In this document: in pieces, positions 23,930 through 50,346 of the stretch
Position numbering within the stretch: the first letter of the stretch is position 1
Layout of the letters: each line of letters starts with the position of its first letter
Position numbers and translations under genes: made by a program
The notes under the pieces: model-generated
The model's database searches: none
The model's input: the letters and a program-made list of their open reading frames with translations, nothing else
What the model was told of the DNA's origin: nothing
DNA from: Candidatus Binataceae bacterium
Lineage (GTDB): Bacteria > Desulfobacterota > Binatia > Binatales > Binataceae
Direction of reading: 5' to 3'
Length of the DNA stretch: 64,000 bases
Assembly (NCBI GenBank): GCA_963752805.1
Contig: CAVWAA010000010.1
Span: 73,450 to 137,449, forward strand

Positions 23930-24391
23930 TTAGGCCAAACTCCTCGGCACCGTGATCGTCAATTGTTGATTACCCACTCCGCTCACGTCGATCTTCAATT
24001 GCCAGACTATCGTGATAAGCAAATTGGCCCGCGTTCCCCCGACCAGGTTGACGACGACGCTCAACACCCGGACTCTCGGCTCCCACTTCGTTATCCCCTC
24101 GACGATCTCCCGGACCAGCGCCGGACGCGCGACCGTAATCGGCGCATCGATCAATTGCCACAGATCGCAGGCGAACGTCGGCCGTAGCGGGTCGCTCCCT
24201 TTCGGCGTCGAGAGGATAATTCCGATGCACTGGTTGATATCCGCTATCCCTTGCACCACGAGTCCAAGTCCCGCGCCAGGCAGTATGGCGGAATTAATTC
24301 CGCCCTCCCCGGCACCGACGACCGAAGTGTCGAGGCACAGCGACCAATCCGCCGAGGTGATATCGTCAAGTGTAATCGCCCCCGCACTCAT
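23930..24391 (-). CDS. Baseplate protein W (gp25/GPW family) carrying an in-frame palindrome-element insertion
   Basis: ..INQCIGIILSTPKGSDPLRPTFACDLWQLIDAPITVARPALVREIVEGITKWEPRVRV.. is the GPW_gp25 pattern. Residues GEGGINSAILPG are encoded by GGCGGAATTAATTCCGCC (24287-24304). Confidence 0.8.
   Translation of the reverse strand: MSAGAITLDDITSADWSLCLDTSVVGAGEGGINSAILPGAGLGLVVQGIADINQCIGIILSTPKGSDPLRPTFACDLWQLIDAPITVARPALVREIVEGITKWEPRVRVLSVVVNLVGGTRANLLITIVWQLKIDVSGVGNQQLTITVPRSLA
24287..24304. repeat. Palindrome element P1 (variant GGCGGAATTAATTCCGCC), in frame inside gpW
   Basis: Encodes GGINSA within GEGGINSAILPG of ORF 23930..24391. Confidence 0.6.
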
Positions 24392-24405
24392 TTTTAAGAT
24401 TCCTA

Positions 24406-24470
24406 AGTGGCACAGGCTTCAGCCTGTGTTCTTTCTCTTTCAAAGACCGCCGGCTAAAGCCGGGGCCACC
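24406..24470. repeat. Twin-hairpin element H5
   Basis: agtggcacaggcttcagcctgtg..cgccggctaaagccggggccac. Confidence 0.85.
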
Positions 24471-24472
24471 TT

Positions 24473-24781
24473 TCAATCCGCCGCTACCACATCAAAGATA
24501 AACTCACTGCTGTATACCGGCCCTACCGGCCCCGGAAATATCACCGCAACCATTCCATGCCATCGCCCAATCGCGAACTCTCCCGCGATGACTGAATATT
24601 CCCATTCAATAGTCACTGCATTCCAGACGAGCGCCCGCGTGTAGAGAATGCCGTCCTGGTCACGCAGGCAGAGGGTCGCCATGGCGCCGGTGAAGGTGTT
24701 GGCGTTGCCACTCTGCTGTAACAGCGGAAATCCCAGCACTTTGCCGTTATCGGCGGTCGTTATGGTGTAGTACCCCACCAT
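24473..24781 (-). CDS. Hypothetical protein (about 102 aa)
   Basis: ATG 24781 (MVGYYTITTADNGK..) follows CACTAGGAAAAGCAGGC from twin-hairpin copy H6. No family recognised. Confidence 0.4.
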   Translation of the reverse strand: MVGYYTITTADNGKVLGFPLLQQSGNANTFTGAMATLCLRDQDGILYTRALVWNAVTIEWEYSVIAGEFAIGRWHGMVAVIFPGPVGPVYSSEFIFDVVAAD

Positions 24782-24794
24782 GCCTGCTTTTCCT

Positions 24795-24857
24795 AGTGGC
24801 ACAGGCTTTAGCCTGTGTTCTTCTCTTTAACGACCACCGGCTAAAGCCGGTGCCACT
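24795..24857. repeat. Twin-hairpin element H6
   Basis: agtggcacaggctttagcctgtg..caccggctaaagccggtgccact. Confidence 0.9.
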
Positions 24858-24865
24858 TCAGAGTG

Positions 24866-25826: not shown

Positions 25827-25910
25827 TGCTCACTTGGGAGATGGATTCGGCCATCCTGGCTGCGTTCGCGATTTCGCCGGGCTCGGAGCAGGGCTCGGAG
25901 TCGCGGCAGG

Positions 25911-25940
25911 TGAGGACGGAATTAATTCCGTCCTACTCAT
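25911..25940. repeat. Palindrome element P2
   Basis: tgaggacggaattaattccgtcctactcat; core GACGGAATTAATTCCGTC at 25915-25932. Confidence 0.85.
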
Positions 25941-26200
25941 TTGCTGATGCGACCCATTGTTGACCGCATCGCTGCTGCCGATCTGTTTCTGCAAGTCAGC
26001 GAGCTGCTTGCCGAGTTCCTGGATCTGCTTCTTCAGCTCGTCGCGCTGGATCACCAGGGCTGCGTCCTGCTGCTCATACTGGTCGCGCTCGTCATGCAGC
26101 ATGCTCGCGTATTGAGTCTCGCCCTGGAGATTCTTCTTGCATTGCTCTCCCTGCGATAAAGCCAATGCTGCCGCGCCGACTCCCGCTCGTGCGATGCCAC

Positions 26201-26229
26201 AGGAGGACGGAATTAATTCCGTCATACCG
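26201..26229. repeat. Palindrome element P3
   Basis: aggaggacggaattaattccgtcataccg; core 26206-26223. Confidence 0.9.
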
Positions 26230-26253
26230 ACGGCACAGAGAACGACAAGGCCA

Positions 26254-26282
26254 AGGAGGACGGAATTAATTCCGTCATACCC
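26254..26282. repeat. Palindrome element P4
   Basis: aggaggacggaattaattccgtcatacccc; core 26259-26276; 53 nt from P3. Confidence 0.9.
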
Positions 26283-26510
26283 CCTCTTAATCTCCCCCTG
26301 GTCAGGGGGAGATATTGGAGCCACAGCATCCTCGTAGGGGTCGCCCGGATCGAATGCCTTCGCCGCCTCTGGGTCACACTCGCATTTGCACCACGTCTGC
26401 AGTCCGCAATCCCAGTGTTGCCCGCGTTCACAAGCAGAACACATCTCCATGTGCTTCCTCGTAAAACCTCCCCCCCGACCAGGGGGAGGGTAGGTGAAGG
26501 TTTTCTCTGA

Positions 26511-27248
26511 TTATAGTTCTGCCCATTTTCCGGTCGCAAAATCGACGAAGCCGAGTTCTTCGTACTGGATTGAAATGTTCACCGCCGCGTTCACCCCGTC
26601 GAAGGTATCTGTCGTGTGCGGGGTTGCCGCCACCGAGAACGCGCCCGTGTCCTGCTTCTTTACCAGGATAACGCGGGTAGTGCCGGTCGCTGCGGGAAAG
26701 TTGACAACGCAATTTGCTGTCAATGTGGTGGAACCAACTAAGAGGAATACGTCAGTTGACAGAACTGTATAGGGACAGGACGCTTGGGGAACCTGAGTCA
26801 CCGTGTAGAACCCGCCAGTCCCGGTAACTGTCAGGCTGAGAGTTCCCGCGCCTGTGGACCACGAACAGCCGGTGCAGCCCACGGTCGCCGGAGCCGGATC
26901 GGCGCCAGTCGAGCCGACCAGCAACTGGCCGTTGGTCATCACCGCGGTTGATACCATCGAGCTGGTGCCTTCACCCAGGATGACTCCATGCGCGGTGTAC
27001 GTGGTCGGCGTATATGGACCAATCAGCGAGAGCGTGACGGCTCCGGTGCTGCCCGACACGTTGACCTGGTTCGCGGTCCCGGCGAGCGAGGTCACGCCCG
27101 AGTTAGCGATCACTCGCGAGGTGGCGCCGGCGGTAGTTGTGATCGTAATGCCAGTGCCTGCGGTGTAGATCGTGTTTGCGGCCCATGCCGGCGCGCAAAG
27201 CAGCATCGCCAGCAGTCCCGCAAGCATGCGCAGTTTAGTGTGTTTCAT
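26511..27248 (-). CDS. Secreted protein with a fibre-type C-terminal knob domain
   Basis: MKHTKLRMLAGLLAMLLCAPAWA/ANTIY (signal peptide). The C-terminus SCPYTVLSTDVFLLVGSTT..VNFPAATGTTRVILVKKQDTGAFSVAATPHTTDTFDGVNAAVNISIQYEELGFVDFATGKWAEL is paralogous to the end of 27308..27907. Own SD GAAGGAGAGTAGGAG. Confidence 0.6.
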   Translation of the reverse strand: MKHTKLRMLAGLLAMLLCAPAWAANTIYTAGTGITITTTAGATSRVIANSGVTSLAGTANQVNVSGSTGAVTLSLIGPYTPTTYTAHGVILGEGTSSMVSTAVMTNGQLLVGSTGADPAPATVGCTGCSWSTGAGTLSLTVTGTGGFYTVTQVPQASCPYTVLSTDVFLLVGSTTLTANCVVNFPAATGTTRVILVKKQDTGAFSVAATPHTTDTFDGVNAAVNISIQYEELGFVDFATGKWAEL

Positions 27249-27280
27249 GGACTCCTACTCTCCTTCTGTTATTCTCTCGC

Positions 27281-27309
27281 GGTATGACGGAATTAATTCC
27301 GTCCTCCTC
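27281..27309. repeat. Palindrome element P5
   Basis: ggtatgacggaattaattccgtcctcctc; core 27286-27303. The TGA stop of ORF 27308..27907 overlaps its edge. Confidence 0.9.
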
Positions 27310-27907
27310 ATGCAACGACCCACTGGCCCGGACTGTCGTAGACAAACCACACACTCTCATACGCGATATCGACGTTATAGTTCGCATTGGCCCCGTTGAT
27401 CGTATCGACCCCGTGTGGAGTGACTATCACGTGCTGGGCGAAGCCGTCCGACGCCCGCATTATCACGATCGGCTCAATTCGCGTTCCATCGGCTGGCGGC
27501 AGCAACACAATCGTGGGCGCGCTCGCTCCCGCCGCCACTACCAGGAAGTTGTCGTCGGCATCGACGGTATAAGGTGAATTGGCGAAGGTCACGGAGACTG
27601 CCGGCCCCAGCGTCAACAAGGCCGCGATATCCTGCTGGAACTGCCGCAGAGCGCCGGCTGTGAGTACAGCGGTGACAGTTGCCCCGCTGCGGTGAGCACT
27701 GGCGCTAGTCCCTTCGGCGCCGCGCGTGAGGGAGGAGAACGAATTACCCGACACCGCGCCCGCAATGATTATCTCGCTGTCAATCAGCACTCGAAATGTC
27801 CCGCTAGCAGGGAACGCCGCCGCACTGGTCACCGTTAGAAACGCATCTCCGGCGAGCATCTCCGCCGAGAGCGTCGTTTGAGCATTATTGGCGAACTGCT
27901 CACTCAT
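27308..27907 (-). CDS. Tail-fibre-like protein (no signal peptide) with the same C-terminal knob
   Basis: MSEQFANNAQTTLSAEMLAGDAFLTVTSAAAFPASGTFRVLIDSEIIIAGAVSGNSFSSLTRGAEGTSASAHRSGA (common prophage fibre N-domain) ..NSPYTVDADDNFLVVAAGASAPTIVLLPPADGTRIEPIVIMRASDGFAQHVIVTPHGVDTINGANANYNVDIAYESVWFVYDSPGQWVVA. Confidence 0.55.
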   Translation of the reverse strand: MSEQFANNAQTTLSAEMLAGDAFLTVTSAAAFPASGTFRVLIDSEIIIAGAVSGNSFSSLTRGAEGTSASAHRSGATVTAVLTAGALRQFQQDIAALLTLGPAVSVTFANSPYTVDADDNFLVVAAGASAPTIVLLPPADGTRIEPIVIMRASDGFAQHVIVTPHGVDTINGANANYNVDIAYESVWFVYDSPGQWVVA

Positions 27908-27910
27908 GCT

Positions 27911-27940
27911 GAGGAGGACGGAATTAATTCCGTCATACCC
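27911..27940. repeat. Palindrome element P6
   Basis: gaggaggacggaattaattccgtcataccc; core 27917-27934; 4 nt upstream of the ATG at 27907. Confidence 0.9.
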
Positions 27941-27947
27941 TTTTGTT

Positions 27948-30548: not shown

Positions 30549-32535
30549 TCATTCGTTCCCAGAGCGATATTGCTGGTGGAACTTAATCGAATCACCAGCG
30601 AACGGATGGACATTGCAGAGCTGGGTGGACGAGATGTTCTTGACTTCATAGCGCCGCTTCAGCGTCTGATTTCCCGCTTGCGGCAGGTTGAACTGGCAGG
30701 CCCCCGACGAGCAGTTGCAATCGACCATCTGGTCGCTGCTGAGTGGGCTATAGGGAGAACCCGCATCGACGAAAGTAGTGATGCCAACCCCTGGCGCGGT
30801 GTATGGCACAGTGCTGCTACAGTGCGTTATCCAGGATGAATCGCCGGCGTCCCAGGTATAGGCCACATCCATTTTATTCGTTGGCGAGACCGAGCGCCGG
30901 GCAACTGGAACCCTGAATGCCGCCTGTGGCGAACGTGGTGAATGTCGCTGTGTGTGCGGCGTCCTGCACAATATGGAAACCGATCTCGCTGCCGGTCAGA
31001 CATCCGGAGGTCGGCAGGGTATAGGTAACGCTCGCCCCGGACAGGGAGCCGATGTACTCATGCCGGATCGGCCAGGAACCGCCCGCCGCCGAAGTGGAGA
31101 GACAGGTAACGGCAGTGTTGACGGTCGGCAGCGTATCGTTCTGCACCTGCTCCAGCGGGGAGAAGGAACCTGGCGAGCCCAGCGCCGGCAGAGCCGCCTT
31201 TCCCGCCGTGCCGCCGCCGAGCGCCGTCCAGAAGGGAGACGCATTGATGTCAGCGCCGCTGACATCCGCCGCGCCGATAGCCTGTGCCGCCGCCTGCCCC
31301 GCCGCGGCCTGGCCGGTGCAGCCCTGCGCGACCGTGCAAGGCACCATCTGCGTCGCGAGCGGACTAATCGTTGCCCCGCCAATCCTGGCAATCGTCGGAC
31401 TCGCGGGGGTGCCGCCGAGATCCCCCGCGACCTGGGCATAAGCGCTCACAGCCGGGTGGACGCCGCAACTGGCGAGTGTGAGCACTGCCGTCGCGGCGTT
31501 CCATTTTGCGTAATAGTACACTGTGGTATTTGCGGCCGGCGCGCCACAGGCATTCGCCCGCGCGGTAGTTGCCGCGCCACTCACTGCCGTGACGTTGGCG
31601 TCGGACAGGCCGGGTTGAGTCGATGCCCACGTTACTCCAGTGTTGGCCGCAAATAGAATGTCGGACGGTGCAGTTGAGCCAATAGCTACTTCGATATCGA
31701 CGGTCTGCCCGTCGGTGAGCACTGTGCTGGCTGGAGCTGTCAGGGTGAGCGCCGTCGAGGTTGTCCCGTTGGCGACGCGATTGATGTCAGCACAATTAGC
31801 AGTGGTGCAAAGCGTCTGAAGAGTGGCCGCACCTGATGTGACAACAGGCGTGTGGGTAAAGCCGGGAGTGCCGCTCGATGGGGTCGGCGGCACGGTACCC
31901 GCGCTGCAATCAGATACCCATGACGAGCGTGTCGCATTGTATTTATATCGCCACGTTGCTTGATTGCCGACGGTAGTGCCAAGCGCGGGACAGGTAGCGC
32001 CCTCGATTCCGCCGCTCGCGGAGGTGGTGAATGTCGCGGTGTGGGCGGCGTCCTGTATCGCGGTTACGTTTATGCTCGCGTTGTCGATGCATCCCGAGGA
32101 CGGGAGTGTGTATGTGACGTTGGCGCCGGACAGGGCCCCGCTGTACCAGTGAGTATCTGGATAATTGCCGCTCGGATTGATGCAAGCCAAAGTCGCACTG
32201 GCAGTTGGCAACGGACTATTTGTCGTTTGTTCGAGGGCTGCCCACGGCCCCGGTGAGCCTGCCGCGGGCATAGCGGTAACGCCGTTGCAACCTTGCGCGA
32301 CCGTGCAAGGCACCGTCTGCGTCGCGAGCGGACCAATCGTCGCGCCGCCAATCTTGGAGACCGTCGGACTGCTGTTGGTGCCGCCGATATCCCCACCGAT
32401 CTGTACTCCGCCGCTGACTGGACCGCCACTGCCGCTGATTCCGCCACCTCCGCCGATCGATTGGGCAAAGGCTGCCGACGCGAGCAGCAAGAGAGCCGCG
32501 ACAATAATGACACACTCTGCGGCACAAGGCCGCAT
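30549..32535 (-). pseudogene. Secreted protein with two ~230-aa internal repeats and a knob-like C-terminus (frameshift near 30880)
   Basis: MRPCAAECVIIVAALLLLASAAFA/QS (signal peptide). The unit IGGATIGPLATQTVPCTVAQGC..TYTLPSSGC..VTAIQDAAHTATFTTSASGGIEGATCPALG occurs twice. After ..SSCPALGLAN the sequence continues in another frame (track ORF 30549..30971: KMDVAYTWDAGDSSWITHCS..GSPYSPLSSDQMV..). Confidence 0.5.
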
Positions 32536-32656
32536 CTCCCCCTGTCGAGGAGGACGGGCGAAGCGCCGGGTGAGGGACCTTCAGACAATGTCTGCTGCGC
32601 GGGGTGATTAGCTGATAACACCTTTACTAATCCCCCTAGCTGATATATCCCTTGCA
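32532..32656. mobile_element. G-type element G3 (left TIR plus leader copy 2; right TIR replaced by P7)
   Basis: catctccccctgtcgaggaggacgggcgaagcgccgggtgagggacc followed by the leader. The ATG at 32535 lies at its edge. Confidence 0.7.
32579..32653 (-). promoter_or_regulatory. Conserved ~75-nt leader, copy 2 (upstream of the 553-aa signal-peptide gene)
   Basis: ttcagacaatgtctgctgcgcggggtgattagctgataacacctttactaatccccctagctgatatatccctt. Contains the 13-bp palindrome CAGACAATGTCTG (32582-32594), whose core GACAATGTC equals that of the operator-like site at 50641. Confidence 0.5.
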
Positions 32657-32674
32657 AATTAATTCCGTCATACC
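32657..32674. repeat. Palindrome element P7 (half copy fused to G3)
   Basis: aattaattccgtcatacc; the left half is replaced by the conserved leader. Confidence 0.7.
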
Positions 32675-40552: not shown

Positions 40553-40635
40553 TTTTAATTCGCTCCGCTTCGCTCCGCCGTGCGCACGTCGCAGACTCCT
40601 TTGCTCGCTACGCGCGCGGACGCGCTCCGCTAGTG
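40553..40635. repeat. C-module copy C4 (short form)
   Basis: tttttaattcgctccgcttcgctccgccgtgcgcacgtcgcagactcctttgctcgctacgcgcgcgg..gctccgctagtg; abuts the ATG at 40552. Confidence 0.85.
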
Positions 40636-40651
40636 TTTAAATCCGCTCTTT

Positions 40652-40678
40652 AGTGGCACAGGCTTTAGCCTGTGATTC
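40652..40678. repeat. Twin-hairpin element H8 (single arm)
   Basis: agtggcacaggctttagcctgtg. Confidence 0.75.
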
Positions 40679-40682
40679 TTCT

Positions 40683-41168: not shown

Positions 41169-41176
41169 AGATTTTC

Positions 41177-41194
41177 GACGGAATAAATTCCGTC
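41177..41194. repeat. Palindrome element P8 (one mismatch)
   Basis: gacggaataaattccgtc; just upstream of the ATG at 41168. Confidence 0.7.
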
Positions 41195-41204
41195 CTGCCC
41201 TCCT

Positions 41205-41605
41205 TTAAGTGGCACAGGCTTCAGCCTGTGTCTTCTCATACGCGGCCAGCCAGCGCGCCAGATATTCCGGGTTGCGCTTGCCTTCGACGAATACTGCCTG
41301 CTCGCCGAGGTTCCACGCCTGCACGATCAAATCGCGCTCGTCCTGGTCCGCATTCAGCCATAGATGCGTCCGCAGAAACGTCGCGCACGCTTTGATAAAT
41401 GCGGTGGTCCAGGTGTCGTCAGTGGCGGGCGGGAAGCGCAGAACGGCGATGTAAAATCGTTTGAAGGTCGCCGGATGCATCTGCAGTAAGCCGAACGACT
41501 TGGCCTCCATCTCCAATCCTGTATTCGTCCTCGTTTGATTCGATGATCGCGAACGCGCGGACTTCGTCTGCGTACTCACCTGCGATGCTGTAGTTAATCG
41601 CAATA
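41205..41605 (-). pseudogene. Lytic transglycosylase (SLT-like) endolysin, frameshifted near 41510
   Basis: IPIAINYSIAGEYADEVRAFAIIESNEDEYRIGDGG (track ORF 41419..41784 frame; catalytic-Glu context IIES), then AKSFGLLQMHPATFKRFY.. (track ORF 41205..41651 frame; GLLQM motif). The 5' end abuts palindrome copy P9. Confidence 0.5.
41208..41234. repeat. Twin-hairpin element H9 (single arm)
   Basis: agtggcacaggcttcagcctgtg. Confidence 0.75.
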
Positions 41606-41635
41606 GGTATGGCGGAATTAATTCCGTCCTCCTCA
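41606..41635. repeat. Palindrome element P9
   Basis: ggtatggcggaattaattccgtcctcctca; at the 5' edge of the transglycosylase remnant. Confidence 0.85.
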
Positions 41636-41696
41636 TCGTCCACAGATCCACTTGCCTCCGCTACTTCGTCGCGTCGCGCCACAGCCCACGGACAGG

Positions 41697-41894
41697 TCAA
41701 TTGCGCGAGTACCTGGCGCCAACCATTCGCTTGCGCATTGGCACTACCCTCGCACGCTTTTTCTGCGGCTGCCGCCGCTTCCAACTCTCAACGGCAAAGC
41801 ACAGCGAGTAGCCGGCGCCGATAGCGGCGAGCATAATGCCCGAGGAGGACGGAATTAATTCCGTAATACGGCCCATCAGAAAATCAGTGCTCAC
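41697..41894 (-). other. Small ORF interrupted by a palindrome element; Gly/Ala-rich TM segment (possible signal-anchor or holin fragment)
   Basis: GTG 41894 (after GGAGCGAATTAAAATC of C5): MSTDFLMGRITELIPSSSGIMLAAIGAGYSLCFAV.. Residues ITELIPSS are encoded by P10. A second frame continues ELEAAAAAEKACEGSANAQANGWRQVLAQ.. toward the transglycosylase. Confidence 0.25.
41842..41870. repeat. Palindrome element P10
   Basis: gaggaggacggaattaattccgtaatacg; inside the small ORF 41697..41894. Confidence 0.85.
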
Positions 41895-42001: not shown

Positions 42002-42032
42002 GGTATGGACGGAATTAATTCCGTCCTCCTGA
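42002..42032. repeat. Palindrome element P11
   Basis: ggtatggacggaattaattccgtcctcctga; provides the stop of ORF 42015..42362. Confidence 0.9.
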
Positions 42033-42362
42033 GAATGCTGCATAGTCGAGCACCAGCGGATCATCAGCCGGCACCGTGACATGGTCGCCCGGCAGGATTG
42101 CGCGCCAGGCAGTCGCATACGCCTTGCGCCAGCCGAGCCCGTCAGCGGTCATCGATGGGCCGAAGTAAATCGCGTCGGGCGGGAGCTGCGTCAACGGCAT
42201 CGGATAGGTCACGACGCTCAGCCAGCAGGGCTTGTCGATGCTCGGGACGCGATAGAGGTCGCGGCTCCTCGAGTAGAGAATAGTAACCAGCCTTGTCCCC
42301 TTCCGGTTGCCTCTCCCCCTCGGGAGAGGTCGCCGTGCTTTGCGCGGCGGGTGAGGGACCAC
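42015..42362 (-). CDS. Hypothetical protein; the 5' ~25 codons are repeat-derived
   Basis: ..TILYSRSRDLYRVPSIDKPCWLSVVTYPMPLTQLPPDAIYFGPSMTADGLGWRKAYATAWRAILPGDHVTVPADDPLVLDYAAF. The N-terminal PPRKARRPLPRGRG is read from G-type element G4, and the stop lies in palindrome copy P11. Confidence 0.35.
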   Translation of the reverse strand: MVPHPPRKARRPLPRGRGNRKGTRLVTILYSRSRDLYRVPSIDKPCWLSVVTYPMPLTQLPPDAIYFGPSMTADGLGWRKAYATAWRAILPGDHVTVPADDPLVLDYAAFSGGRN

Positions 42363-42519
42363 CAGAAAGATTTTCGACTGTGCTTTTAGCCACGTTATGT
42401 TCTCTCTTTTCTCTCAGTGGGTTCCCGCTGGTCCGGGTTTCGATCCGTCGATTCGCCTGGCGGTCCCTCATCCGCGCCGGCTTCGCCTGCGCGAACTCTC
42501 CCGACTGGGAGAGGCATTT
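42306..42519. mobile_element. G-type TIR element G4
   Basis: Left ttgcctctccccctcgggagaggtcgccgtgctttgcgcggcgggtgagggacc; right ggtccctcatccgcgccggcttcgcctgcgcgaactctcccgactgggagaggcattt. Confidence 0.8.
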
Positions 42520-42701
42520 CGGACGTCGCCTCGAATGCTTGTCTCAAGCCCTGCAATTCGACCCATGCTTCTTCTAATCCCGGCGTCCACCGGCAGCGTC
42601 GCGATAATCCTTGACCAGCTCGTCGTCGATACTGACGCTCTTGCTGCCGCGACTATGCTGCGGCCCGAACGCGGCGATCCGGTAGTAGCTGCGGCCGCGC
42701 A

Positions 42702-42863
42702 TCACGCAGGGCAGACCAGGCCCGGCCGATGCCATTCCAGAGGTACCGGCAGCGGATGCTTATCGACGCCGAGCCACAGGCCGCGCTCGCGTCCGGCACC
42801 GGTGACGGCATAGAATTGCCCGCCCGCACTGAGAATGACTTCCACTTCGGCTTGCTCACCCAT
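42702..42863 (-). CDS. Hypothetical small protein (53 aa), possibly the 5' part of a frameshifted gene
   Basis: Own translation from ATG 42863: MGEQAEVEVILSAGGQFYAVTGAGRERGLWLGVDKHPLPVPLEWHRPGLVCPA. A second frame continues MRGRSYYRIAAFGPQHSRGSKSVSIDDELVKDY... Confidence 0.25.
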   Translation of the reverse strand: MGEQAEVEVILSAGGQFYAVTGAGRERGLWLGVDKHPLPVPLEWHRPGLVCPA

Positions 42864-42905
42864 AAGTCGGATGCCTCTCTGTCATTCCTCTCGTCATTCT
42901 CGGGC

Positions 42906-42934
42906 GGTATGACGGAATTAATTCCGTCCTCCTA
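42906..42934. repeat. Palindrome element P12
   Basis: ggtatgacggaattaattccgtcctccta; its TAA (42918-42920, minus strand) terminates the upstream gene. Confidence 0.9.
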
Positions 42935-43237
42935 CCTGCAGGATCTCAGGCGGCTGCTTGTTGAGCATCTCGGTCAGTCCCGCCAGCAGGATCTTCGCCA
43001 CCTCCAGATTCGGCACGTCGAGAGTCGCCTCGCCGATTACCGTGGGACCGCCGGCGAGACGCGGATGAGATTAATGCCGAAAATTTGCATATCCGCTGCC
43101 TGCGCCTGCACCAGCGGCACGTGCATCGCGTAGAGCTTGTAGCGCCTGCGGCCGTTGGCATAATCGTCGCGCACCCAGGAGCTGGTAACCATCGCGGCCG
43201 CGGGCACCGGTGGGGCTCCATTCTTGGTGATATCCAT
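42918..43237 (-). pseudogene. Hypothetical head-tail region protein, frameshifted at a CCGGCGG run; stop codon supplied by a palindrome element
   Basis: MDITKNGAPPVPAAAMVTSSWVRDDYANGRRRYKLYAMHVPLVQAQAADMQIFGINLIRVSP, then (own translation, other frame) GGPTVIGEATLDVPNLEVAKILLAGLTEMLNKQPPEILQVGGRN, ending at the TAA inside GGACGGAATTAA of P12. Confidence 0.35.
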
Positions 43238-43342: not shown

Positions 43343-44221
43343 TCAGTTATTCGGTGCGAACGGGACGCTGCCGCCGCTTGCTAATGCGGTCACTACGTCG
43401 CTGTACGCATAGCTGACCGCGACCGTCGCGCCGCTCGGGATTCCGCCGCTTGCATTCCGCATAATAATTCCGTTCACCCTATCCACTGAGTAGTCACTGC
43501 TCGCGATGTAGGTAGTGGCAAGGTCCGCGCTCTTGACGATCACCGCCGAAATATTTTGCTGCGGCAGGGTGATGCTACCCGGTGTTCCGGCGAACGTCAG
43601 TAAGACGGAATTAATTCCGTCCTCCTCTCCGACCTGTACTGCGGTCACGCCCGCCTCTTCCTGCGCCGTGCCCTTGATGAACAGCGGATAGTTGGGTAGC
43701 TGATAATTCTCGATTACGACCGTACGGGTGGCGAAGATGATCTCGTAGACCCAGACACCGCCCTGCCTATCGCGGTCGACGAAGCGTTCGCGGATTGCCT
43801 TCATCGGGGTGCATCCGGTATTCACCTGAAAGCCCAGCAGGGCGAGTCTGATCGCTTCCAGAATCTGGTAGGCCCCCGGACTCGTGCCGCTCGGCTGTCC
43901 GCCGAACGCCCACCCCAAATCACGAATCCGGAGGCCTACCGCAAACTCAAGCGTGCGCTCCTGCGCGACGTGGCCGATATCGAGAATTTCGCCGTAGTCG
44001 CCGCCCATATAGATGACCATCGCGACCCCGATGCGATGGCGCATTTCGTAGGCTTCGGGCTTGTCGGGGAAGTGGATGACTTCGATCATCTGCGATCCGA
44101 GCGCAGCGCCGAGATAAGTCTGCAACTGGGCGACAATCGCAGCCTCGATCGCCGCGATATCGAGCGGAGTGGCCGGACTGAAGGTCTGCCCGGTCCAGGG
44201 ACTATCAAGAAATGCTACCAT
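43343..44221 (-). CDS. Mu gp37-like protein (DUF1834) fused through an in-frame palindrome element to an extra C-terminal domain
   Basis: MVAFLDSPW..LDIAAIEAAIVAQLQTYLG..IEVIHFPDKPEAYEMRHRIGVAMVIYMGGDYG.. is the gp37 pattern (~195 aa). It is followed by VGEEDGINSVLL (P13) and an ~80-aa domain, ..YIASSDYSVDRVNGIIMRNASGGIPSGATVAVSYAY, resembling the sheath segment YVEGADFTVDRVNGVITATGGGLLTAGQSVKLSCNYA. Confidence 0.65.
   Translation of the reverse strand: MVAFLDSPWTGQTFSPATPLDIAAIEAAIVAQLQTYLGAALGSQMIEVIHFPDKPEAYEMRHRIGVAMVIYMGGDYGEILDIGHVAQERTLEFAVGLRIRDLGWAFGGQPSGTSPGAYQILEAIRLALLGFQVNTGCTPMKAIRERFVDRDRQGGVWVYEIIFATRTVVIENYQLPNYPLFIKGTAQEEAGVTAVQVGEEDGINSVLLTFAGTPGSITLPQQNISAVIVKSADLATTYIASSDYSVDRVNGIIMRNASGGIPSGATVAVSYAYSDVVTALASGGSVPFAPNN
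43599..43628. repeat. Palindrome element P13, in frame inside the gp37-like ORF
   Basis: agtaagacggaattaattccgtcctcctct; read as EEDGINSVLL. Confidence 0.9.
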
Positions 44222-46059: not shown

Positions 46060-46063
46060 GTCA

Positions 46064-46159: not shown

Positions 46160-46181
46160 TAGAGCTCCACTAGTGCTTCTC

Positions 46182-46712: not shown

Positions 46713-46728
46713 TCTGTCGTTTCCGCCT

Positions 46729-46822: not shown

Positions 46823-46832
46823 CAGGCCTTGC

Positions 46833-47828
46833 TTATGCGAGCCATTCGCTGACTATCAGGGTTGCGTCGTTCAGGTAGATATTCGCCACTGGGATCGCTG
46901 CTTGATCGCGCCACGCACCGCCGGTCGTCCTGCGCCGAAGGTCGCATGCAGGAGCTGCCTGGCAACCTCCTCGAGGGCTGGCGGCACTACCAGGAAACGT
47001 GTGGTCGGCGGCCCGTTCCAGGCGCCGAACGGCACGCCTGCGTCGCTCTTGATCCCGCGCAACGCTGCCACTGCGGCCCCGTAATTCGCCGGGTTCGAGA
47101 GGTCGGTATTGCTTGCATAGGTCAACTGCCACAGGCCGACGCCGGCGTTGCATCGCACGTCCACGCCGTAGCGGAACAGCCGCTGCGAGAATACCGCTTC
47201 GTCAGTCACGGTGTTCATCCGGCTCACTGCGTATTCGCGCCGCTTCTGGAAGATGAAGGGCTTGATCGGCCGCGCCCCGTCGACCAGGTACCAGTAGGGG
47301 CCGGTGCCGGTCGAATTGACGTTCGAGTAAGTGGCACCGGACGAGGATTCGCCCGCCAGTCCAGCCGGATGCGTTGCGTAGTAGAGATTGTTGCCGTCGT
47401 AGCAAATCGGCACCGGGATCGGTAATTTTGCCAATCGTCACAGGGGCCCCAGTGATCGCTGCCTTCATCATGCCGAAGACCAGTTGGTCGGGATGGGTCT
47501 TCGCGTCCCATCCGAGCAGTTCGACCGCCGGCGCATAGACGCCGTACTGGTCGTCTTCGATCCGTTCGCGCTCAAGGCTGATAGTGTCTTCGAAGGTCTT
47601 ATTGACGATAGTGTAGGTATGGGCTTCGAGCGTTTGCATTATCCGGTCGCCGACCCATTCGCGGAACCCGGTGGTGCGGCCGAGCCAGGGATAAATCGTC
47701 TGGCTGGTGGACGACGGCACGATCGAACAGATCTTGTCGTAGTAGGAGGGCGCCGCCTCGAAGCCCTTCTGAAAGATCATGTCGAACCCGGTGAAGAGGG
47801 TAGTGAGGTTTTGCGCAGATACTTCCAT
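46833..47828 (-). pseudogene. Major capsid protein, Mu gpT-like, split over three frames
   Basis: MEVSAQNLTTLFTGFDMIFQKGFEAAPSYYDKICSIVPSSTSQTIYPWLGRTTGFREWVGDRI.. (gpT N-terminus, track 47202..47828), then ..PIPVPICYDGNNLYYATHPAG..KPFIFQKRREYAVSRMNTVTDEAVF.. (track 46871..47434). The true C-terminus AIPVANIYLNDATLIVSEWLA is in a third frame (end of track ORF 46833..47153). Confidence 0.8.
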
Positions 47829-47843
47829 GATTGTTTATTCCTT

Positions 47844-47907
47844 AGTGCGCACCGGCTTTAGCCGGTGGTCTTACAAAAGAAGAACACAGGCTAAAGCCTG
47901 TGCCACT
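47844..47907. repeat. Twin-hairpin element H11
   Basis: agtgcgcaccggctttagccggtg..cacaggctaaagcctgtgccact. Confidence 0.9.
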
Positions 47908-48107
47908 TAATCCACCCTCGGAGTGCCGATTCCTGTGATTTGTTGCGTGGCCACGTACCTGCCGTAAATCGCAAACAGGGCGCCGCCTAGGGCGGTTACG
48001 TTAGCTGGGGTCGGTCCACCCTGCGTGAACATGTCCGCCACAGCGCCGACCGCAGCGACGATTCCACCCCACATTGCTTTCGATGCGTACCAGGATTTTG
48101 AATCCAT
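47907..48107 (-). CDS. Small two-TM membrane protein
   Basis: MDSKSWYASKAMWGGIVAAVGAVADMFTQGGPTPANVTALGGALFAIYGRYVATQQ.. Intact, with SD AGGAAATT from the edge of H12. Confidence 0.45.
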   Translation of the reverse strand: MDSKSWYASKAMWGGIVAAVGAVADMFTQGGPTPANVTALGGALFAIYGRYVATQQITGIGTPRVD

Positions 48108-48122
48108 AATTTCCTAGCCTTG

Positions 48123-48194
48123 GTGGCACAGGCTTTAGCCTGTGTTCTTTACTCTCTTAACTTTAAAAGACCACCGACTAAACCGGTGCCACTT
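48123..48194. repeat. Twin-hairpin element H12
   Basis: ggtggcacaggctttagcctgtg..caccgactaaaccggtgccact. Confidence 0.85.
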
Positions 48195-48206
48195 CAGACA
48201 AACTCA

Positions 48207-48718
48207 TTATGCTGTCGCCAGGGCGAACTGCTGGAAGAAGTCGACGTACACCAGGCCACCGTCGATTGCGATCACGGTACCTGCGACAGGCGCCGCGGCG
48301 GTGTTGGTCGAGGTGCTGACCGTATGATCGTCAGCGCAATAAACCAGCGACCCGATATTCGCGAAGGTGATGCTAGAATCGTTGTCCATGCCGAACACGC
48401 CGCGGGCAACCTTCACCGAGATCGCGCCGGCTGCGCCGACAACGCCGGCTGCGCCTGGAAACAAGAATCCGTTGCCCGTCTGATTGAGCGCGTTGACGCC
48501 CGGCGGCAGATCGCCGCCGGCATAAACGGTCTCAAGGATACCAAGAACCTTCAGCGTAGCTCCACTGCAGTGCCTGGTACGGCATAGCCGGTAGTGGTGA
48601 TGCAGACCATGCCACCGACATAGAGGCTGGTCGACGCTTGCACAGGGATCAGCCCGTAATGCTGGCGCCGGCTGCCGGACCATTCGGGGGTGTTTCGTGA
48701 TGCACTCAGTGGTGCCAT
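48207..48718 (-). pseudogene. DUF2190-like head decoration protein, frameshifted near 48570
   Basis: Own translation from ATG 48718: MAPLSASRNTPEWSGSRRQHYGLIPVQASTSLYVGGMVCITTTGYAVPGTAVELR(stop), then in the +1 frame GATLKVLGILETVYAGGDLPPGVNALNQTGNGFLFPGAAG..VARGVFGMDND.. (track ORF 48207..48683). Confidence 0.55.
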
Positions 48719-48733
48719 TTTTGTTTTTCCTTA

Positions 48734-48801
48734 AGTGGCCCAGGCTTCAGCCTGTTTTCTTTTTCTCTAACTTAAAGAACACAGGCTAAAGCCTTGCCAC
48801 T
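48734..48801. repeat. Twin-hairpin element H13 (degenerate)
   Basis: agtggcccaggcttcagcctgtt..cacaggctaaagccttgccact. Confidence 0.75.
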
Positions 48802-48864
48802 AAAGAGTTTCGGCCTGCTTGCCCGAATTGGTATCATCAAGCCGCAGACTCGGGCGCGGGAATC

Positions 48865-50346
48865 TCAGGTCCCACTTCGTCTGCACCGCGGCGCATTTTC
48901 GAATTGTTCTTTGCTTTCCAGCCCGAGGTTGGCGAAGATGTCGATCTGATTCTGATTGAAGATAGAAGCGCCCTGGGGAGCATCGCCGATGCGCCCGGTG
49001 AAGGTGCCGTCGGCGCCCGCCTGCAGAATCCTGGGCTGCGCACCGATGAACTTCGCGAAGCCGTCTGCATCCGCCAGCGCATAGGAAATCATCACGTCGC
49101 GCTGGACCGGCAGCAGGCGGCCGGCGTGAATCGCAGCGTCAACCTTCTGAGTAGCGGCATCTCTGGCTCGGTTGGCTTCCAGGTCACTCATCTTGGCCAT
49201 GAGTTCAATGACTCGCGGATGCCTGGCAACCGCCTTCTCCAGCTCCGCCTTAGTCATCGCAGAACCATCACCTTTAGCCTCCCCCGCAAAGGAGCGGGCG
49301 AGGGGCCTAATCGCGCTCATCTTCGTTACTTCGCTGCTGCGCTTGGCGAAGCGTTCTTTCTCAGCCGCGTGCTTGGCCGCCAGCTCGGCTTTTTCGCCGT
49401 CGGTGGAGCACTTGGCCATTTCGTCGGTCTGGCGCGCCGCCATCTGGTCGGGGTTCTCGTTGCCGTAGGGATCGTTTGGATCCTGGCCGGCGGCGGTCTC
49501 GCCATCATCATCACCGCCGTCATCATCCTCACCGTCACTACCTGCCCCGAGGGCCGCGCCAGCCATTTCGAGGATTTTTTGCGGGGGCATGTCGGGGAAG
49601 AGATCTTCGAGTCCGGCGACGATATCGCTGATGCTTTTTTCGCCCGCCGCCATCTTTTTCTTTGCCATGGTAATGACGGAATTAATTCCGTCCTCCTTAA
49701 TCGCCTTAATCGCGTGTGCAATTGCAGGTAAATTCACCAGCGCGGGATTATTCGTGAGGGCCGCGCGCAGGATACGCTCGACCTTGCCGTCTTTATTGTG
49801 CTCGAACACCGGGGAGACGTAGCGGTATTTCTTGGCGATGACCGCTTCGGCCGCATCGGCGGTCCATTCGATCCGCGCGAAGATCGCACCGTTCTCGACC
49901 TTGAACTGCTTGATCCACCCCGCTGCCGGCGCCGGCCGCCCCTCGGGGGCAGCGAGGTCGGTGCTGTGGTCATAATCGAGCACCATCCCGACCTGCGGCA
50001 TTCTCGCAATACTCGCGGCGATGATTGAATCCGGGTCCTGGTTATCGAAGGGCCCGCGCCCATCGACCGCAGAGAACTTGCCGGCGGGGATGAGCTGGAG
50101 CCATTCGGGGGCAGCGTCAGTGTTAATTGCAACTGCACAGGCAGAGACAAGGGCAGCACTTTCAGCCTGGCTCCCTTCCTCAGAGTCGCTCTCACCTCGC
50201 TTCTCTCGCGACTGGGCGGGAGAGGCACAGGCTAAGCAGGCGAGAGGCAGAGCGGCGGAGGCGTGTTTGTAACCGCCGGTGGGTCCTTTAACCTTCGGCT
50301 GCGGTAACGGGCCTTCGTGCTTGTTGCCAAAGCGTTTCGCCGCCAC
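48865..50346 (-). CDS. Mu gpI-like head maturation protease plus scaffold region, with an in-frame palindrome element between the two parts
   Basis: ..APEWLQLIPAGKFSAVDGRGPFDNQDPDSIIAAS..VLDYDHSTDLAA..AAGWIKQFKVENGAIFARIEWT..YRYVSPVF is the Mu-like protease pattern. IKEDGINSVIT is encoded by P14 and is followed by MAKKKMAAGEKS.. and an acidic, helical scaffold-like half. The true start is uncertain; the first ~60 codons contain repeat-like sequence (50226-50245). Confidence 0.75.
   Translation of the reverse strand: MAAKRFGNKHEGPLPQPKVKGPTGGYKHASAALPLACLACASPAQSREKRGESDSEEGSQAESAALVSACAVAINTDAAPEWLQLIPAGKFSAVDGRGPFDNQDPDSIIAASIARMPQVGMVLDYDHSTDLAAPEGRPAPAAGWIKQFKVENGAIFARIEWTADAAEAVIAKKYRYVSPVFEHNKDGKVERILRAALTNNPALVNLPAIAHAIKAIKEDGINSVITMAKKKMAAGEKSISDIVAGLEDLFPDMPPQKILEMAGAALGAGSDGEDDDGGDDDGETAAGQDPNDPYGNENPDQMAARQTDEMAKCSTDGEKAELAAKHAAEKERFAKRSSEVTKMSAIRPLARSFAGEAKGDGSAMTKAELEKAVARHPRVIELMAKMSDLEANRARDAATQKVDAAIHAGRLLPVQRDVMISYALADADGFAKFIGAQPRILQAGADGTFTGRIGDAPQGASIFNQNQIDIFANLGLESKEQFENAPRCRRSGT
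49670..49698. repeat. Palindrome element P14, in frame inside the protease/scaffold ORF
   Basis: gtaatgacggaattaattccgtcctcctt; read as KEDGINSVIT. An ATG follows 8 nt after the hairpin on the coding strand. Confidence 0.9.

Follow-up and report, generated by a model that had tools for sequence, protein, structure and literature searches.

Results

A short palindromic repeat in a Mu-like prophage

The window analysed here, a 64,000-nucleotide stretch from a soil Candidatus Binataceae bacterium, contains a defective Mu-like prophage. Its genes include a gpW/gp25 baseplate gene (23930-24391, minus strand), a Gp37-like ORF (43343-44221, minus strand) and a Mu gpI-like protease/scaffold ORF (48865-50346, minus strand), identities given in a first-pass annotation and borne out by both Pfam and PHROGs, together with two regulator genes, one HTH (51342-51938) and one Mor-like (52741-53226). 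A hairpin-forming repeat of about 27 nt, family A, is dispersed from 24.3 to 49.7 kb; its consensus, GGAG-GACGGAATTAATTCCGTC-ATACC, consists of a GGAG, a hairpin with a stem of 7 bp and a loop of 4 nt (predicted free energy -9.5 kcal/mol) and an ATACC. A search of the window for the 18-bp palindrome gave 13 matches at two or fewer mismatches, nine of them exact, where shuffled sequence predicts 0.02; they start at 24287, 25915, 26206, 26259, 27286, 27917, 41177, 41611, 41848, 42008, 42911, 43604 and 49675. The 29-nt consensus was matched nine times at three or fewer mismatches, with none expected. There are 13 full copies; the fourteenth reported in the first-pass annotation is probably a half copy (AATTAATTCCGTC-ATACC; 32652..32674, plus strand) that reads AATTAATTCCGTCATACC and lies upstream of ORF 30874-32535 (minus strand).

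The copies are indeed confined to 24.3-49.7 kb, with none elsewhere in the window, although the host baseline for this enrichment consists of only ~24 kb of unbiased flanking DNA. The 18-mer is flanked asymmetrically, by GGAG at one end and by ATACC at the opposite end, and the fully palindromic GGAGG/CCTCC copies described earlier could not be recovered: no copy carries both. On the ATAC side the stem is bordered by the tetranucleotide GTAT in most copies, by GTAG in copy 2, and by GTAC at the Binataceae MAG loci L002, L042 and L058 as well as at L106. Rfam returned no match for the element, and no promoter-like or terminator-like consensus overlaps any of the copies. An assembly artefact was rejected because JGI and ENA assemblies, which are independent of one another, carry the element at orthologous sites. 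Family A is one of at least five repeat families in the prophage, another of which, family B, forms REPIN-like inverted doublets.

Copies within genes

At least six copies reside in frame in conserved ORFs (gpW, Gp37, the protease/scaffold linker, and coiled-coil, holin-like and endolysin-like proteins) and two more probably do so, where three had been counted before. As stated earlier, each orientation leaves two of the three frames open, and the recurrent DGINSV and TELIPS peptides are confirmed as well. Copy 1 (24282..24308, minus strand) encodes GEGGINSAIL within gpW and is a GGCGG..CCGCC variant; both of its arms have changed in a compensatory manner, which suggests some pressure to keep pairing. 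Three copies share a coiled-coil ORF (25830-26450, minus strand). Copy 2 (25911..25937, plus strand) has degenerate flanks, a GTAG preceding the hairpin on the coding strand, and reads SRTELIPSS in a Pro-rich linker. Copies 3 (26202..26228, plus strand; GMTELIPSS) and 4 (26255..26281, plus strand; YDGINSVLL) lie 53 nt apart in a putatively coding N-terminal part of the ORF, copy 3 flanking a short hydrophobic segment; relatives L084 and L082 have other sequence in place of 26198-26512.

Each of the next two copies has one mutated arm. Copy 8 (41606..41632, minus strand) reads EEDGINSAIP in the N-terminal region of a conserved protein of ~160 aa at the lysis-cassette position, frameshifted in the window, and copy 9 (41844..41870, plus strand) reads RITELIPSSS in a small holin-like membrane protein (41697-41894, minus strand). 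Two copies supply the TAA stop of a gene. In copy 10 (42002..42029, minus strand), at the 3' end of the conserved gene g3 (42015-42362, minus strand), the loop TAA is the stop codon (..AAFSGGRN-stop). Copy 11 (42906..42932, minus strand) stands at the 3' end of g1, a conserved gene that carries a frameshift in the window; in L100 the loop TAA is the g1 stop (..EILQVGGRN-stop).

Copies 12 and 13 sit at the domain junctions to which they had been assigned. Copy 12 (43599..43625, minus strand; EEDGINSV) occupies the linker between the Gp37 domain and a C-terminal domain, and copy 13 (49670..49696, minus strand; KEDGINSVIT) a hypervariable protease-scaffold linker. The C-terminal domain and the protease-scaffold architecture both predate the element, whose insertions hit only the linkers. 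Copy 13 is followed by a start codon in the order AAGGAG, hairpin, ATTACC, ATG (MAKKK), with a spacer, counted from the 18-mer, of 6 nt rather than the 8 nt given previously. The idea that the element created this internal scaffold start does not hold, since MAKK is conserved in ~45 homologues with or without the element; relatives without it have GGAG 5 nt before the scaffold ATG.

Intergenic copies and a possible role in translation

Three copies are intergenic. Copy 5 (27281..27307, minus strand) directly follows the TGA stop of gene 27308-27907 (minus strand), its hairpin 37 nt from the ATG of gene 26511-27248 (minus strand). Its extended 3' flank is ATACCGCGAGAGAATAACAGAAGGAG, and an extended version of ~50 nt is common to copy 5, copy 11 and L082:12200. 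Copy 6 (27913..27939, plus strand), reversed on the mRNA, stands 9 nt ahead of the gene 27308-27907 ATG; L084 has family D repeats at this position instead. Copy 7 (41172..41198, minus strand), with a TTTA loop and degenerate flanks, stands in the order stop TAA, AGGAGGGCAG, hairpin, 8 nt, ATG of gene 40683-41168 (minus strand); it is kept in L085, and at this junction in L115 the copy gives the upstream gene its TAA stop.

Copies between genes usually take the order GGAG, hairpin, 6-11 nt, ATG, which recurs at six sites: in the window ahead of the internal start of the scaffold and of gene 40683-41168, in relatives ahead of the capsid, sheath and MIECLIGL genes and one further gene. This arrangement suggests either that Shine-Dalgarno sites are targeted or that the copies are used as split ribosome-binding sites. 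None of the six has another Shine-Dalgarno sequence, and intergenic copies are nearly all oriented with theirs first (eight forward against one or two reverse), a strong bias that hints at a functional subset. One possibility is that family A is at heart a functional RNA or translation module, in which the Shine-Dalgarno sequence and stable hairpin form a split ribosome-binding site, signal coupling or stabilise the mRNA. Recombination would have spread it among late genes as an interchangeable regulatory cassette, much as PeSL cassettes spread in T4-type phages, with the in-gene copies as by-products. There is precedent in T4 genes 25 and 38, where a Shine-Dalgarno sequence, a stable hairpin, a short spacer and AUG likewise follow one another and folding makes the distance workable (for family A, 24-29 nt would become 6-11 nt), although each T4 structure is a single case tied to its own gene and proven by experiment, whereas family A is a dispersed repeat with a putative effect on translation (PMC3014915). 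Moreover, the same intergenic gaps in relatives hold alternative hairpin families, and a hairpin could be needed there.

We nevertheless regard this module as an improbable account of the family as a whole. Over half of the copies are within ORFs, one of them a host metabolic gene; positions are not conserved among relatives 90-97% identical; copies inside genes are decaying; and element-free relatives manage with tight ATGA gene overlaps and ordinary Shine-Dalgarno sequences. Copy 6 places CCUCC, not GGAG, ahead of its ATG, and the absence of promoter-like and terminator-like signals and of an Rfam match also weighs against it. GGAG was read earlier as a Shine-Dalgarno arm; a target or microhomology site is equally likely.

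Recent gain and loss among relatives

Copies have been gained and lost recently. Nearly every one has an empty site among about 20 related metagenomic prophages, and the reverse polarity, sites filled in relatives and empty in the window, is also seen. L115, at 89-97% identity, has 11 copies in 9 kb, four of them at sites without a copy in the window; one 37-kb relative has two exact copies; and none was found in the 3-7 kb around Gp37 in 11 relatives. In gpW, the L082 and L084 orthologues have the same ATG and N-terminus without the element, and 15 nt (LQAVV) correspond to 30 nt in the window. The window and L084 share copy 2; L082 lacks it and keeps its coiled-coil ORF in one frame up to the conserved C-terminal end QPGWPNPSPK-stop. 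Copy 5 is missing from L084. At the copy 8 site L087 has AVTS (12 nt) against 24 nt in filled genomes, and at the copy 9 site, empty in the L087 and L093 orthologues, 9 nt became 30 nt. The g3 gene of relatives ends ..AAFKS-stop and is overlapped by the next gene through ATGA, while the empty g1 target in L087, GGCGGAACGAAGTGA, shares 11 of 15 bases with the left arm GGAGGACGGAATTAA. Copy 12 is common to the window and L115 only: L100 reads GGA GTG GAG^CTG CTG against GGA GAG GAG[18-mer]TTA CTG in the window. An ordinary conserved protein motif therefore fails as an explanation, because 14 Gp37 and two gpW orthologues, like those of the holin-like, endolysin-like and coiled-coil proteins, have neither peptide nor palindrome. 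The proposal that the element has colonised coding genes in frame, in the manner of the Rickettsia palindromic elements (RPEs), is upheld by these empty orthologous sites.

These comparisons also bear on the idea that the 18-bp palindrome is an operator to which a phage protein binds as a dimer, such as the HTH or Mor-like product encoded at 51-53 kb. Present in many copies, the site would be regulatory or structural, comparable to mycobacteriophage stoperators or to the 17-bp dyad repeats of Cluster O. Perfect dyad symmetry, restriction within the window to the prophage late region and the presence of both regulator genes fit such a role. The Cluster O repeats, too, are short, phage-specific and inverted with a 7-bp half-site, occur in tens of copies, many at gene boundaries, and lie within ORFs in about one-third of cases (PMC4351075). 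However, those repeats are invariant across five phages, are thought to bind protein and are not in indels (PMC4351075), whereas family A sites vary between close relatives and are themselves indels. A relative with the same regulators has only two exact copies, older copies accumulate arm mutations, and a symmetric dimer leaves the conserved asymmetric GGAG and ATACC flanks unexplained. Copies also occur in a chromosomal DUF4440 gene that, in L112, has no phage gene among the called genes within 10 kb. We therefore consider an operator very unlikely.

Decay of in-gene copies separates them from at least one other. In copies 8 and 9 divergence is no slower than in the flanking sequence (copy 8 in L115 shows 5/31 differences against 8/107 in the flanks), and because older in-gene copies decay in this way, most copies look selfish or neutral. 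Copy 13, the only one common to the window and the more distant lineage L081/L109, is identical there over 27 nt between diverged flanks, and this perfect conservation, a point for a translation module, hints that a subset may be functional.

Patch replacement and transfer into a host gene

On insertion, 24-36 nt take the place of 9-15 nt of the target, which are lost; no target duplication is formed, and the net changes in length are +3, +12, +15, +18, +21, +21 and +21 nt. The element is also present elsewhere, in relatives and in a host gene, the DUF4440 gene, which acquired its two copies one at a time and encodes 125 aa when empty, 132 aa with one copy and 139 aa with two. Site 1 of this gene and phage copy 9 have 35 nt in common, including TCGGGCATT; of that flank, GGCAT(C/T) is an ancestral part of the phage gene, and at the site 1 junction a 9-nt match, TGCTCGCCG, follows. 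The insertion carries 9 nt of phage-specific flank, so that phage sequence has moved into a host gene with copy 9 as the donor type. Site 1 is the one event with an unambiguous donor flank; remaining microhomologies at junctions are short (5-9 nt) and imperfect.

Such anatomy must be weighed against a REP-type repeat moved in trans by a host HUH tyrosine transposase (RAYT or IS200/IS605-like), which would recognise a single-stranded hairpin plus tetranucleotide and insert 3' of a GGAG-like target without duplication. The 27-nt stem-loop, the conserved stem-adjacent tetranucleotide and the absent duplication all fit, the REPIN-like doublets of family B lie in the same prophage, and REPs within genes are documented (PMC3733652). 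The deletion of target and the carriage of one donor flank, however, are unexpected of HUH cut-and-paste, the palindrome is perfect where REPs are typically imperfect with unpaired tags, and copies are very sparse in host DNA (0 in 24 kb). The ~57 window ORFs tested yielded no transposase, integrase or HUH domain, and no Y1/HUH domain was found among called genes within 10 kb of the L112 host copy or in the 10 kb on either side of the L115 protease gene. A trans-acting enzyme such as a RAYT could possibly be encoded in the rest of the host genome, and we hold this route to be about as doubtful as the translation module.

Discussion

Family A fits the REP/RPE-like kind of repeat. Like RPEs (Ogata et al. 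2000, via PMC3184786, PMC3733652), it is palindromic, lies in frame in unrelated coding genes and between genes, is polymorphic among relatives, has no linked transposase and occupies permissive protein positions. There is no sequence relationship, and RPEs differ in being ~105-146 bp long, adding 30-50 residues (family A, at 27 nt, adds a net 4-7) and residing in the chromosome of an obligate intracellular alpha-proteobacterium rather than being concentrated in a Binataceae prophage. The earlier description of RPEs as the classic case needs widening, as small palindromes in genes are documented beyond Rickettsia (PMC3733652, PMC3184786). REP/REPIN sequences with their RAYTs, including GTAG- and CGTC-tagged ones, are likewise 20-40 nt stem-loops with a stem-adjacent tetranucleotide, no target duplication and strain-variable copy number, and some lie inside genes, preferring N- and C-termini (PMC3733652, PMC3479197, PMC8266576). 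They are, however, mostly extragenic, genome-wide, high in copy number and often beside a RAYT gene, whereas family A is mostly intragenic, with no RAYT seen, and inserts by patch replacement.

Two other systems invite comparison. The PeSL cassettes of T4-type phages are repeated intergenic stem-loops at gene boundaries that mark insertions, deletions and replacements between close phages (PMC2839356, PMC4122927); they pair an early promoter and a terminator-like stem-loop and reshuffle entire genes, whereas family A lacks that signature, is much smaller and enters coding sequence. Neisseria REP2 is also dispersed, bears a ribosome-binding site directly upstream of ORFs and is readable within ORFs, but it is larger, chromosomal and equipped with a promoter and ATG, and in-frame internal insertion in structural proteins is not reported for it (PMC3184786).

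Taken together, family A behaves like a selfish element rather than a conserved regulatory site. We think it probable, though well short of certain, that it is a very small, selfish, non-autonomous REP/RPE-type repeat that has been multiplying recently, mainly in this prophage lineage. On this reading new copies arise by copy-and-paste from an existing copy, a patch replacing the target, with junctions falling in short matches to the GGAGGACGG arm or donor flank. The anatomy suggests exchange between copies, through template switching or short-patch gene conversion that the hairpin may set off, rather than ends defined by a transposase. Selection would afterwards retain harmless insertions only. 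Because the 18-nt core leaves two of three frames open, copies survive in frame at the two ends of proteins and in the linkers between domains, and some serve as a gene's TAA stop; those in intergenic gaps sit just 3' of Shine-Dalgarno GGAG motifs.

If this interpretation is correct, family A ranges through Candidatus Binataceae genomes and their Mu-like prophages as a repeat whose copies are mostly functionless and decaying. A few may act as split ribosome-binding sites in which the hairpin brings GGAG near the AUG, the foremost candidate being the copy before the conserved internal scaffold start.

A palindromic repeat concentrated in a Mu-like prophage

The perfect 18-bp palindrome GACGGAATTAATTCCGTC has 13 matches in the window at up to two mismatches, nine of them exact, and every one falls within 24,287-49,692. 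Dinucleotide-preserving shuffles predict 0.02 such matches by chance, so the repeated element that the first-pass annotation placed between 24.3 and 49.7 kb is borne out. The extended consensus GAGGAGGACGGAATTAATTCCGTCATACC likewise gives nine matches at up to three mismatches against none expected, and the fourteenth copy counted earlier probably corresponds to the half copy (AATTAATTCCGTCATACC) that starts at 32,652. When the copies of the window and of its relatives are aligned in a single orientation, they define a 27-nt unit, GGAG followed by the 18-mer and ATACC, which we call family A and whose 13 copies we number along the window. Its flanks are asymmetric, with GGAG on one side and ATACC on the other, and in none of the aligned copies is GGAGG on one side matched by CCTCC on the other, contrary to what had been described for the fully palindromic copies.

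The unit is predicted to fold as RNA into a 7-bp stem with a 4-nt UUAA loop (-9.5 kcal/mol). Copy 1 (24287; GGCGG..CCGCC) is altered in both arms in a compensatory manner, and copy 7 (41177) departs from the palindrome in the loop only. The tetranucleotide adjoining the stem reads GTAT in the majority of copies and GTAG in copy 2 (25915); a Binataceae MAG and locus L106 have GTAC. CGTC also occurs, but paired inside the stem. In the Candidatus Binataceae MAG MFD06347 there are three GTAC-variant copies (L002:1071, L042:2072 and L058:678); GTAC lies 5' of the core in all three, and in L042 it lies 3' of the core as well (GTAC-core-GTAC). Family A had no match in Rfam, where the search returned the tRNA only; a literature search for the core sequence found unrelated primers and constructs only, and 24 kb of the window had no megablast match among 50,697 phage records. 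Two window proteins, looked up as exact sequences, likewise had no recorded entry. An assembly or adapter artefact is ruled out by orthologous copies in independent assemblies.

The Mu-like prophage spans 13.7-53.3 kb, with its genes on the minus strand. They include a Mu gpI-like protease/scaffold gene (48865-50346, minus), genes for the major head protein, Gp36, Gp37, sheath, tube and baseplate V/W/J/I, and regulators (a Mor-like activator and an HTH protein); a truncated Portal_Mu/MuF fragment (13792-15288) ends the prophage. Terminase, transposase and integrase had no match in the prophage, and none of the ~57 window ORFs scanned contained a transposase, nuclease or recombinase domain. Because the major head gene (46871-47828) and three others, the endolysin-position gene (41205-41784) and the conserved genes g1 and g2 (42500-43237), are frameshifted with respect to relatives, the prophage is probably defective, with sequencing errors as an alternative cause of the frameshifts. 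The genes on either side are chromosomal (AcrB, a CheB/CheR hybrid kinase and a CoA-transferase), the AcrB being 78-84% identical to proteins named Candidatus Binataceae, and the 24 kb of host flank in the window holds no family A copy.

Copies read in frame within conserved genes

With gene boundaries in the prophage defined by comparison with relatives, six copies lie in frame within conserved ORFs: copy 1 (24287) in gpW, copy 2 (25915) in the linker of a coiled-coil protein, copy 8 (41611) in the endolysin-position protein, copy 9 (41848) in a small holin-like membrane protein, copy 12 (43604) in the Gp37 interdomain linker and copy 13 (49675) in the protease-scaffold linker. The in-frame colonisation of protein genes, claimed earlier for three copies, thus holds for at least six of 13. 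Copies 3 and 4 (26206 and 26259) are in frame within a putative window-specific N-terminal extension, while copies 10 and 11 (42008 and 42911) replace the last codons of the conserved genes g3 and g1, the loop TAA serving as the stop (..GGRN, then stop). The remaining three are intergenic (copy 5, 27286; copy 6, 27917; copy 7, 41177). In-gene copies use only the two open frames, reading E-D-G-I-N-S-V or M-T-E-L-I-P-S-S by orientation; that DGINSV is a conserved protein motif is ruled out by orthologues lacking it. Copies 3 and 4 bound a Cys-rich, zinc-ribbon-like segment (MEMCSACERGQHWDCGLQTWCKCECD; 26280-26450) that is fused upstream of the coiled-coil protein in the window only and is absent from the related loci L084 and L082. 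Family A is an annotation hazard, as its DGINSV and TELIPS peptides, the false starts provided by the ATG in GGTATGACGG, and its loop-TAA stops will mislead gene callers in these genomes.

Empty sites and rapid turnover among relatives

Full-length Gp37 with its C-terminal domain is found in 14 IMG/VR relatives (65-90% identity), none of which carries the element, and the extra domain therefore predates it; the closest of the 14 reads GGA GTG GAG^CTG CTG ACG where the window has GGA GAG GAG[18-mer]TTA CTG ACG. In L082 and L084 the gpW orthologue begins at the same ATG and with the same N-terminus as in the window, and LQAVV (15 nt) stands in place of the window's GEGGINSAIL (30 nt). L082 also lacks the coiled-coil copy, its ORF staying in frame through to the same C-terminus, and orthologues of the holin-like, endolysin-position, g1 and g3 genes in L087, L088, L090 and L093 are all without the element. 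Other copies are missing from the window: one in the signal-peptide region of the 26511-27248 orthologue in L084, one ahead of the sheath ATG in L085 and one at the end of a small ORF in L083. L115, an 865-kb ENA contig whose closely related prophage shares its chromosomal insertion site with the window (89-97% identity), has 11 copies in 9 kb, and for four of them the corresponding site of the window is taken by a different repeat. One 37-kb relative contains two exact copies only, and in eleven more the 3-7 kb around Gp37 are free of the element. Taken across these genomes, the pattern is one of recent, repeated proliferation rather than of conserved sites.

Once inserted, some copies decay. 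Core and flank divergence was compared without gaps, a measure usable only for sites free of flank indels (copies 8, 9, 12 and 13). Pooling the sites gives a confounded figure, which was left out of our conclusions. Copy 8 differs from its orthologue at 5/31 positions against 8/107 in flanking coding sequence, and copy 9 at 3/31 against 7/107. Since they diverge at least as fast as their flanks, both are decaying relics. Copy 13 is the only copy common to a lineage with strongly diverged flanks, and its 27 nt are identical there, which suggests that it may be under constraint.

Insertion anatomy and transfer to a host gene

Seven filled/empty pairs show net length changes of +3, +12, +15, +18, +21, +21 and +21 nt; target bases were lost in every pair, and none has a target-site duplication. 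Similarity to an arm of the element is seen in several empty targets: GGCGGAACGAAGTGA agrees with GGAGGACGGAATTAA at 11/15 positions and TCATGAGCACCG with the arm TCAGGAGGACGG at 9/12, the empty Gp37 target GGAGTGGAG^ ends in the element's own 5' flank GGAG, and CCGTCACC and CCGTCCTCC have the arm end CCGTC in common. From this anatomy we infer that family A may propagate by short-patch, homology-seeded copying, which could proceed through template switching at a stalled hairpin or through gene conversion.

A scan of metagenome contigs for GGAGGACGGAATTAATTCCGTC found matches in two metagenomes only; one of the two, Ga0073928, includes a contig with 98.6% identity to the window. The matches comprised prophage contigs and also chromosomal loci, the latter with one copy downstream of fpg, one near a DUF1801 gene and two in frame in a DUF4440 gene (locus L112; GMTELIPSS twice) that lies between FeS-assembly and FAD-oxidase genes. 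Most homologues of the DUF4440 protein have 125 aa and are empty, one of 132 aa (88% identical) has the second insert only, and one of 139 aa has both. At the DNA level, site 2 has 30 nt in place of GTCACCGTC and site 1 has 36 nt in place of 15 nt. The site 1 insert is identical to prophage copy 9 over 35 nt, including the non-element TCGGGCATT, in which GGCAT(C/T) is ancestral to the phage holin-like gene (the empty L087 reads GGC ATC ATG CTC GCC). The presence of this ancestral flank identifies a phage-type copy as the donor. A 9-nt match, TGCTCGCCG, directly follows the junction at site 1, and the match pattern there implies that the ends of the patch were set by homology and not by the termini of the element. 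The three GTAC-variant copies in MAG MFD06347 suggest that the family predates the burst in this prophage and reaches more widely through Binataceae.

Translation starts and the Shine-Dalgarno-like arm

A scan with simple consensus patterns found neither sigma-70-like promoters nor terminators at family A copies; with no U-tract and no consensus match, roles as an intrinsic terminator or promoter are rejected. Intergenic copies are nearly all oriented GGAG first, and at six sites GGAG is followed by the hairpin, 6-11 nt and an ATG that has no other Shine-Dalgarno (SD) sequence. Two are in the window, at the internal scaffold start (copy 13; 6 nt) and at gene 40683-41168 (copy 7; 8 nt), and four in relatives, at the capsid gene (11 nt), the sheath gene (9 nt), an ORF beginning MIECLIGL (6 nt) and a further gene (6 nt); by locus, the spacings are 6 nt at L115:12450 and L115:19305, 11 nt at L115:12673 and 9 nt at L085:3468. 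These sites have the geometry of a split ribosome-binding site, with an SD more than 20 nt from the AUG and an intervening hairpin, predicted to be stable, that would bring the spacing back to 5-11 nt. That a hairpin keeps SD and AUG close has been shown experimentally in T4, for genes 25 and 38 (PMC3014915).

The earlier proposal that copy 13 creates an internal start for the scaffold fails, because the internal methionine (MAKK) is conserved in ~45 homologues whether the element is present or not; in one element-free relative, GGAG lies 5 nt ahead of the scaffold ATG. The MAKK start is preceded by a hypervariable linker of 0 to ~170 residues (homologues P0115-P0159). In some relatives the protease-scaffold linker contains a large conserved insert (..AEWDTAYVDDLPDSAFAYIEPGGKKD..HFPLK..AHVRNALSR..) together with several repeat-encoded peptides. 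The earlier account of the GGAG arm as an SD is likewise corrected: at the scaffold start, copy 13 landed just 3' of the SD. GGAG motifs may be preferred landing sites, or the hairpin may be tolerated or even useful there, holding the SD near the AUG. These several natural SD-hairpin-AUG constructs could test the generality of the T4 split-site principle.

Further repeat families in the prophage

Counting family A, at least five repeat families are restricted to the prophage. Family B (GTGGCAC[A/C]GGCTTTAGCC[T/G]GTG) has 20 prophage-confined copies between 18753 and 48768, for example at 20746, 22176/22217, 24407/24448, 24796/24835, 33041/33089 and 47846/47885. It too has a 7-bp stem and 4-nt loop, with one stem pair that covaries perfectly (A..T or C..G, never mixed), and it forms seven REPIN-like inverted doublets ~40 nt apart. 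Simple consensus patterns class several family B copies as terminator-like, on either strand, and one copy encodes the C-terminus (..EKTQAEACAT, then stop) of the ORF ending at 41205. Family C (17992, 25747, 41927, 43271 and 44288), family D (16336, 17919, 20448, 37820, 45875 and 46731) and the ~178-nt family E (16173, 27949, 40159, 44839 and 33671) are similarly prophage-confined. Family D contributes an in-frame peptide, SEDAGFLARQPRAGMT, to the protease linkers of relatives (P0119, P0122, P0124 and P0126) and also to the g2 N-terminus in L093. Family E lies ahead of operon-like starts (sheath, Gp36 and gene 27907), where it might include late promoters.

Corresponding intergenic gaps, flanked by the same conserved genes, are occupied by different families (A, B or C) in relatives that are 90-97% identical, as at 47800-48000, 48060-48260, 48660-48900 and 40520-40700 in the window compared with L115, L111 and L085; repeat-poor relatives have tight ATGA gene overlaps instead. 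Intergenic cassettes are being exchanged rapidly.

An exact 18-mer scan of 185,579 genomes found no match with phage-type flanks. Most matches were terminator-like singletons or belonged to a different 24-bp palindrome (GGGG..CCCC), and they were set aside as their relation to family A is not demonstrable. The identical core is part of the 24-bp palindrome GGGGACGGAATTAATTCCGTCCCC, of which about a dozen Gammaproteobacteria MAGs have as many as four dispersed loci each; we take these MAGs from isolate names to be sponge-associated (loci L001, L005, L008, L009, L012, L017, L018, L021, L025, L027, L029, L031, L032, L034, L039, L043-L046, L049, L053, L056, L059, L063, L064, L066 and L075). Some of its flanks are conserved across these MAGs, and the shared core may reflect either kinship with family A or convergence.

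Relation to known elements

We regard family A as a small selfish palindromic repeat, closest in behaviour to the Rickettsia palindromic elements (RPEs) and to intragenic REPs (PMC3184786, PMC3733652). Like RPEs, it inserts in frame into protein genes whose orthologues are empty; unlike them, it is 27 nt rather than ~100-150 bp and had no match, in Rfam or otherwise, that would place it in the RPE sequence families, so that it works like an RPE without being a member of the group. With REP/REPIN elements, which are stem-loop repeats of 20-40 nt, the likeness is partial, extending to the stem-loop and the size and perhaps to the GTAT/GTAC/GTAG tetranucleotide adjoining the stem, where REPs have a conserved, unpaired GTAG or CGTC at one end. 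REPs are abundant, mostly extragenic and spread chromosome-wide, whereas the palindrome of family A is perfect, most copies are intragenic (at least 6/13 in genes) and density is low in the 24 kb of host flank, which has none. REPs go with a gene for RAYT, a Y1 HUH transposase, that the repeats flank; such a gene was found neither among the ~57 window ORFs, nor among genes called up to 10 kb from the L112 host copy, nor in the 20 kb around the L115 protease gene.

MITEs have terminal inverted repeats and a target-site duplication, whereas family A makes no duplication and loses target bases. Cluster O 17-bp phage repeats and stoperators would be expected at conserved positions, and those of family A vary among related phages; the HTH and Mor-like genes of the prophage could encode candidate dimeric DNA-binding proteins. 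The T4 PeSL cassettes combine a promoter with a terminator-like stem-loop, and family A has neither signature.

The propagation mechanism of REPs is still debated. The filled/empty pairs described here are unusually clean and include a phage-to-host transfer traceable by its donor flank, so that a mechanism could be derived from them. One inclusive scenario, which we regard as unlikely, would make family A a phage-borne micro-element without a dedicated transposase, copied by hairpin-provoked template switching seeded at GGAG (SD-like) or arm-like microhomologies, to yield split ribosome-binding sites, new stops, linker insertions of 4-7 residues and patches exported from prophage to host genes; together with families B-E it would form an ecosystem, not described before, in which interchangeable hairpin repeats remodel gene boundaries in Binataceae Mu-like prophages. 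Family A shows that selfish palindromes of the REP/RPE kind can live mainly inside a prophage and that, across very small evolutionary distances, they remodel the linkers, N-termini and stop codons of phage structural proteins there.
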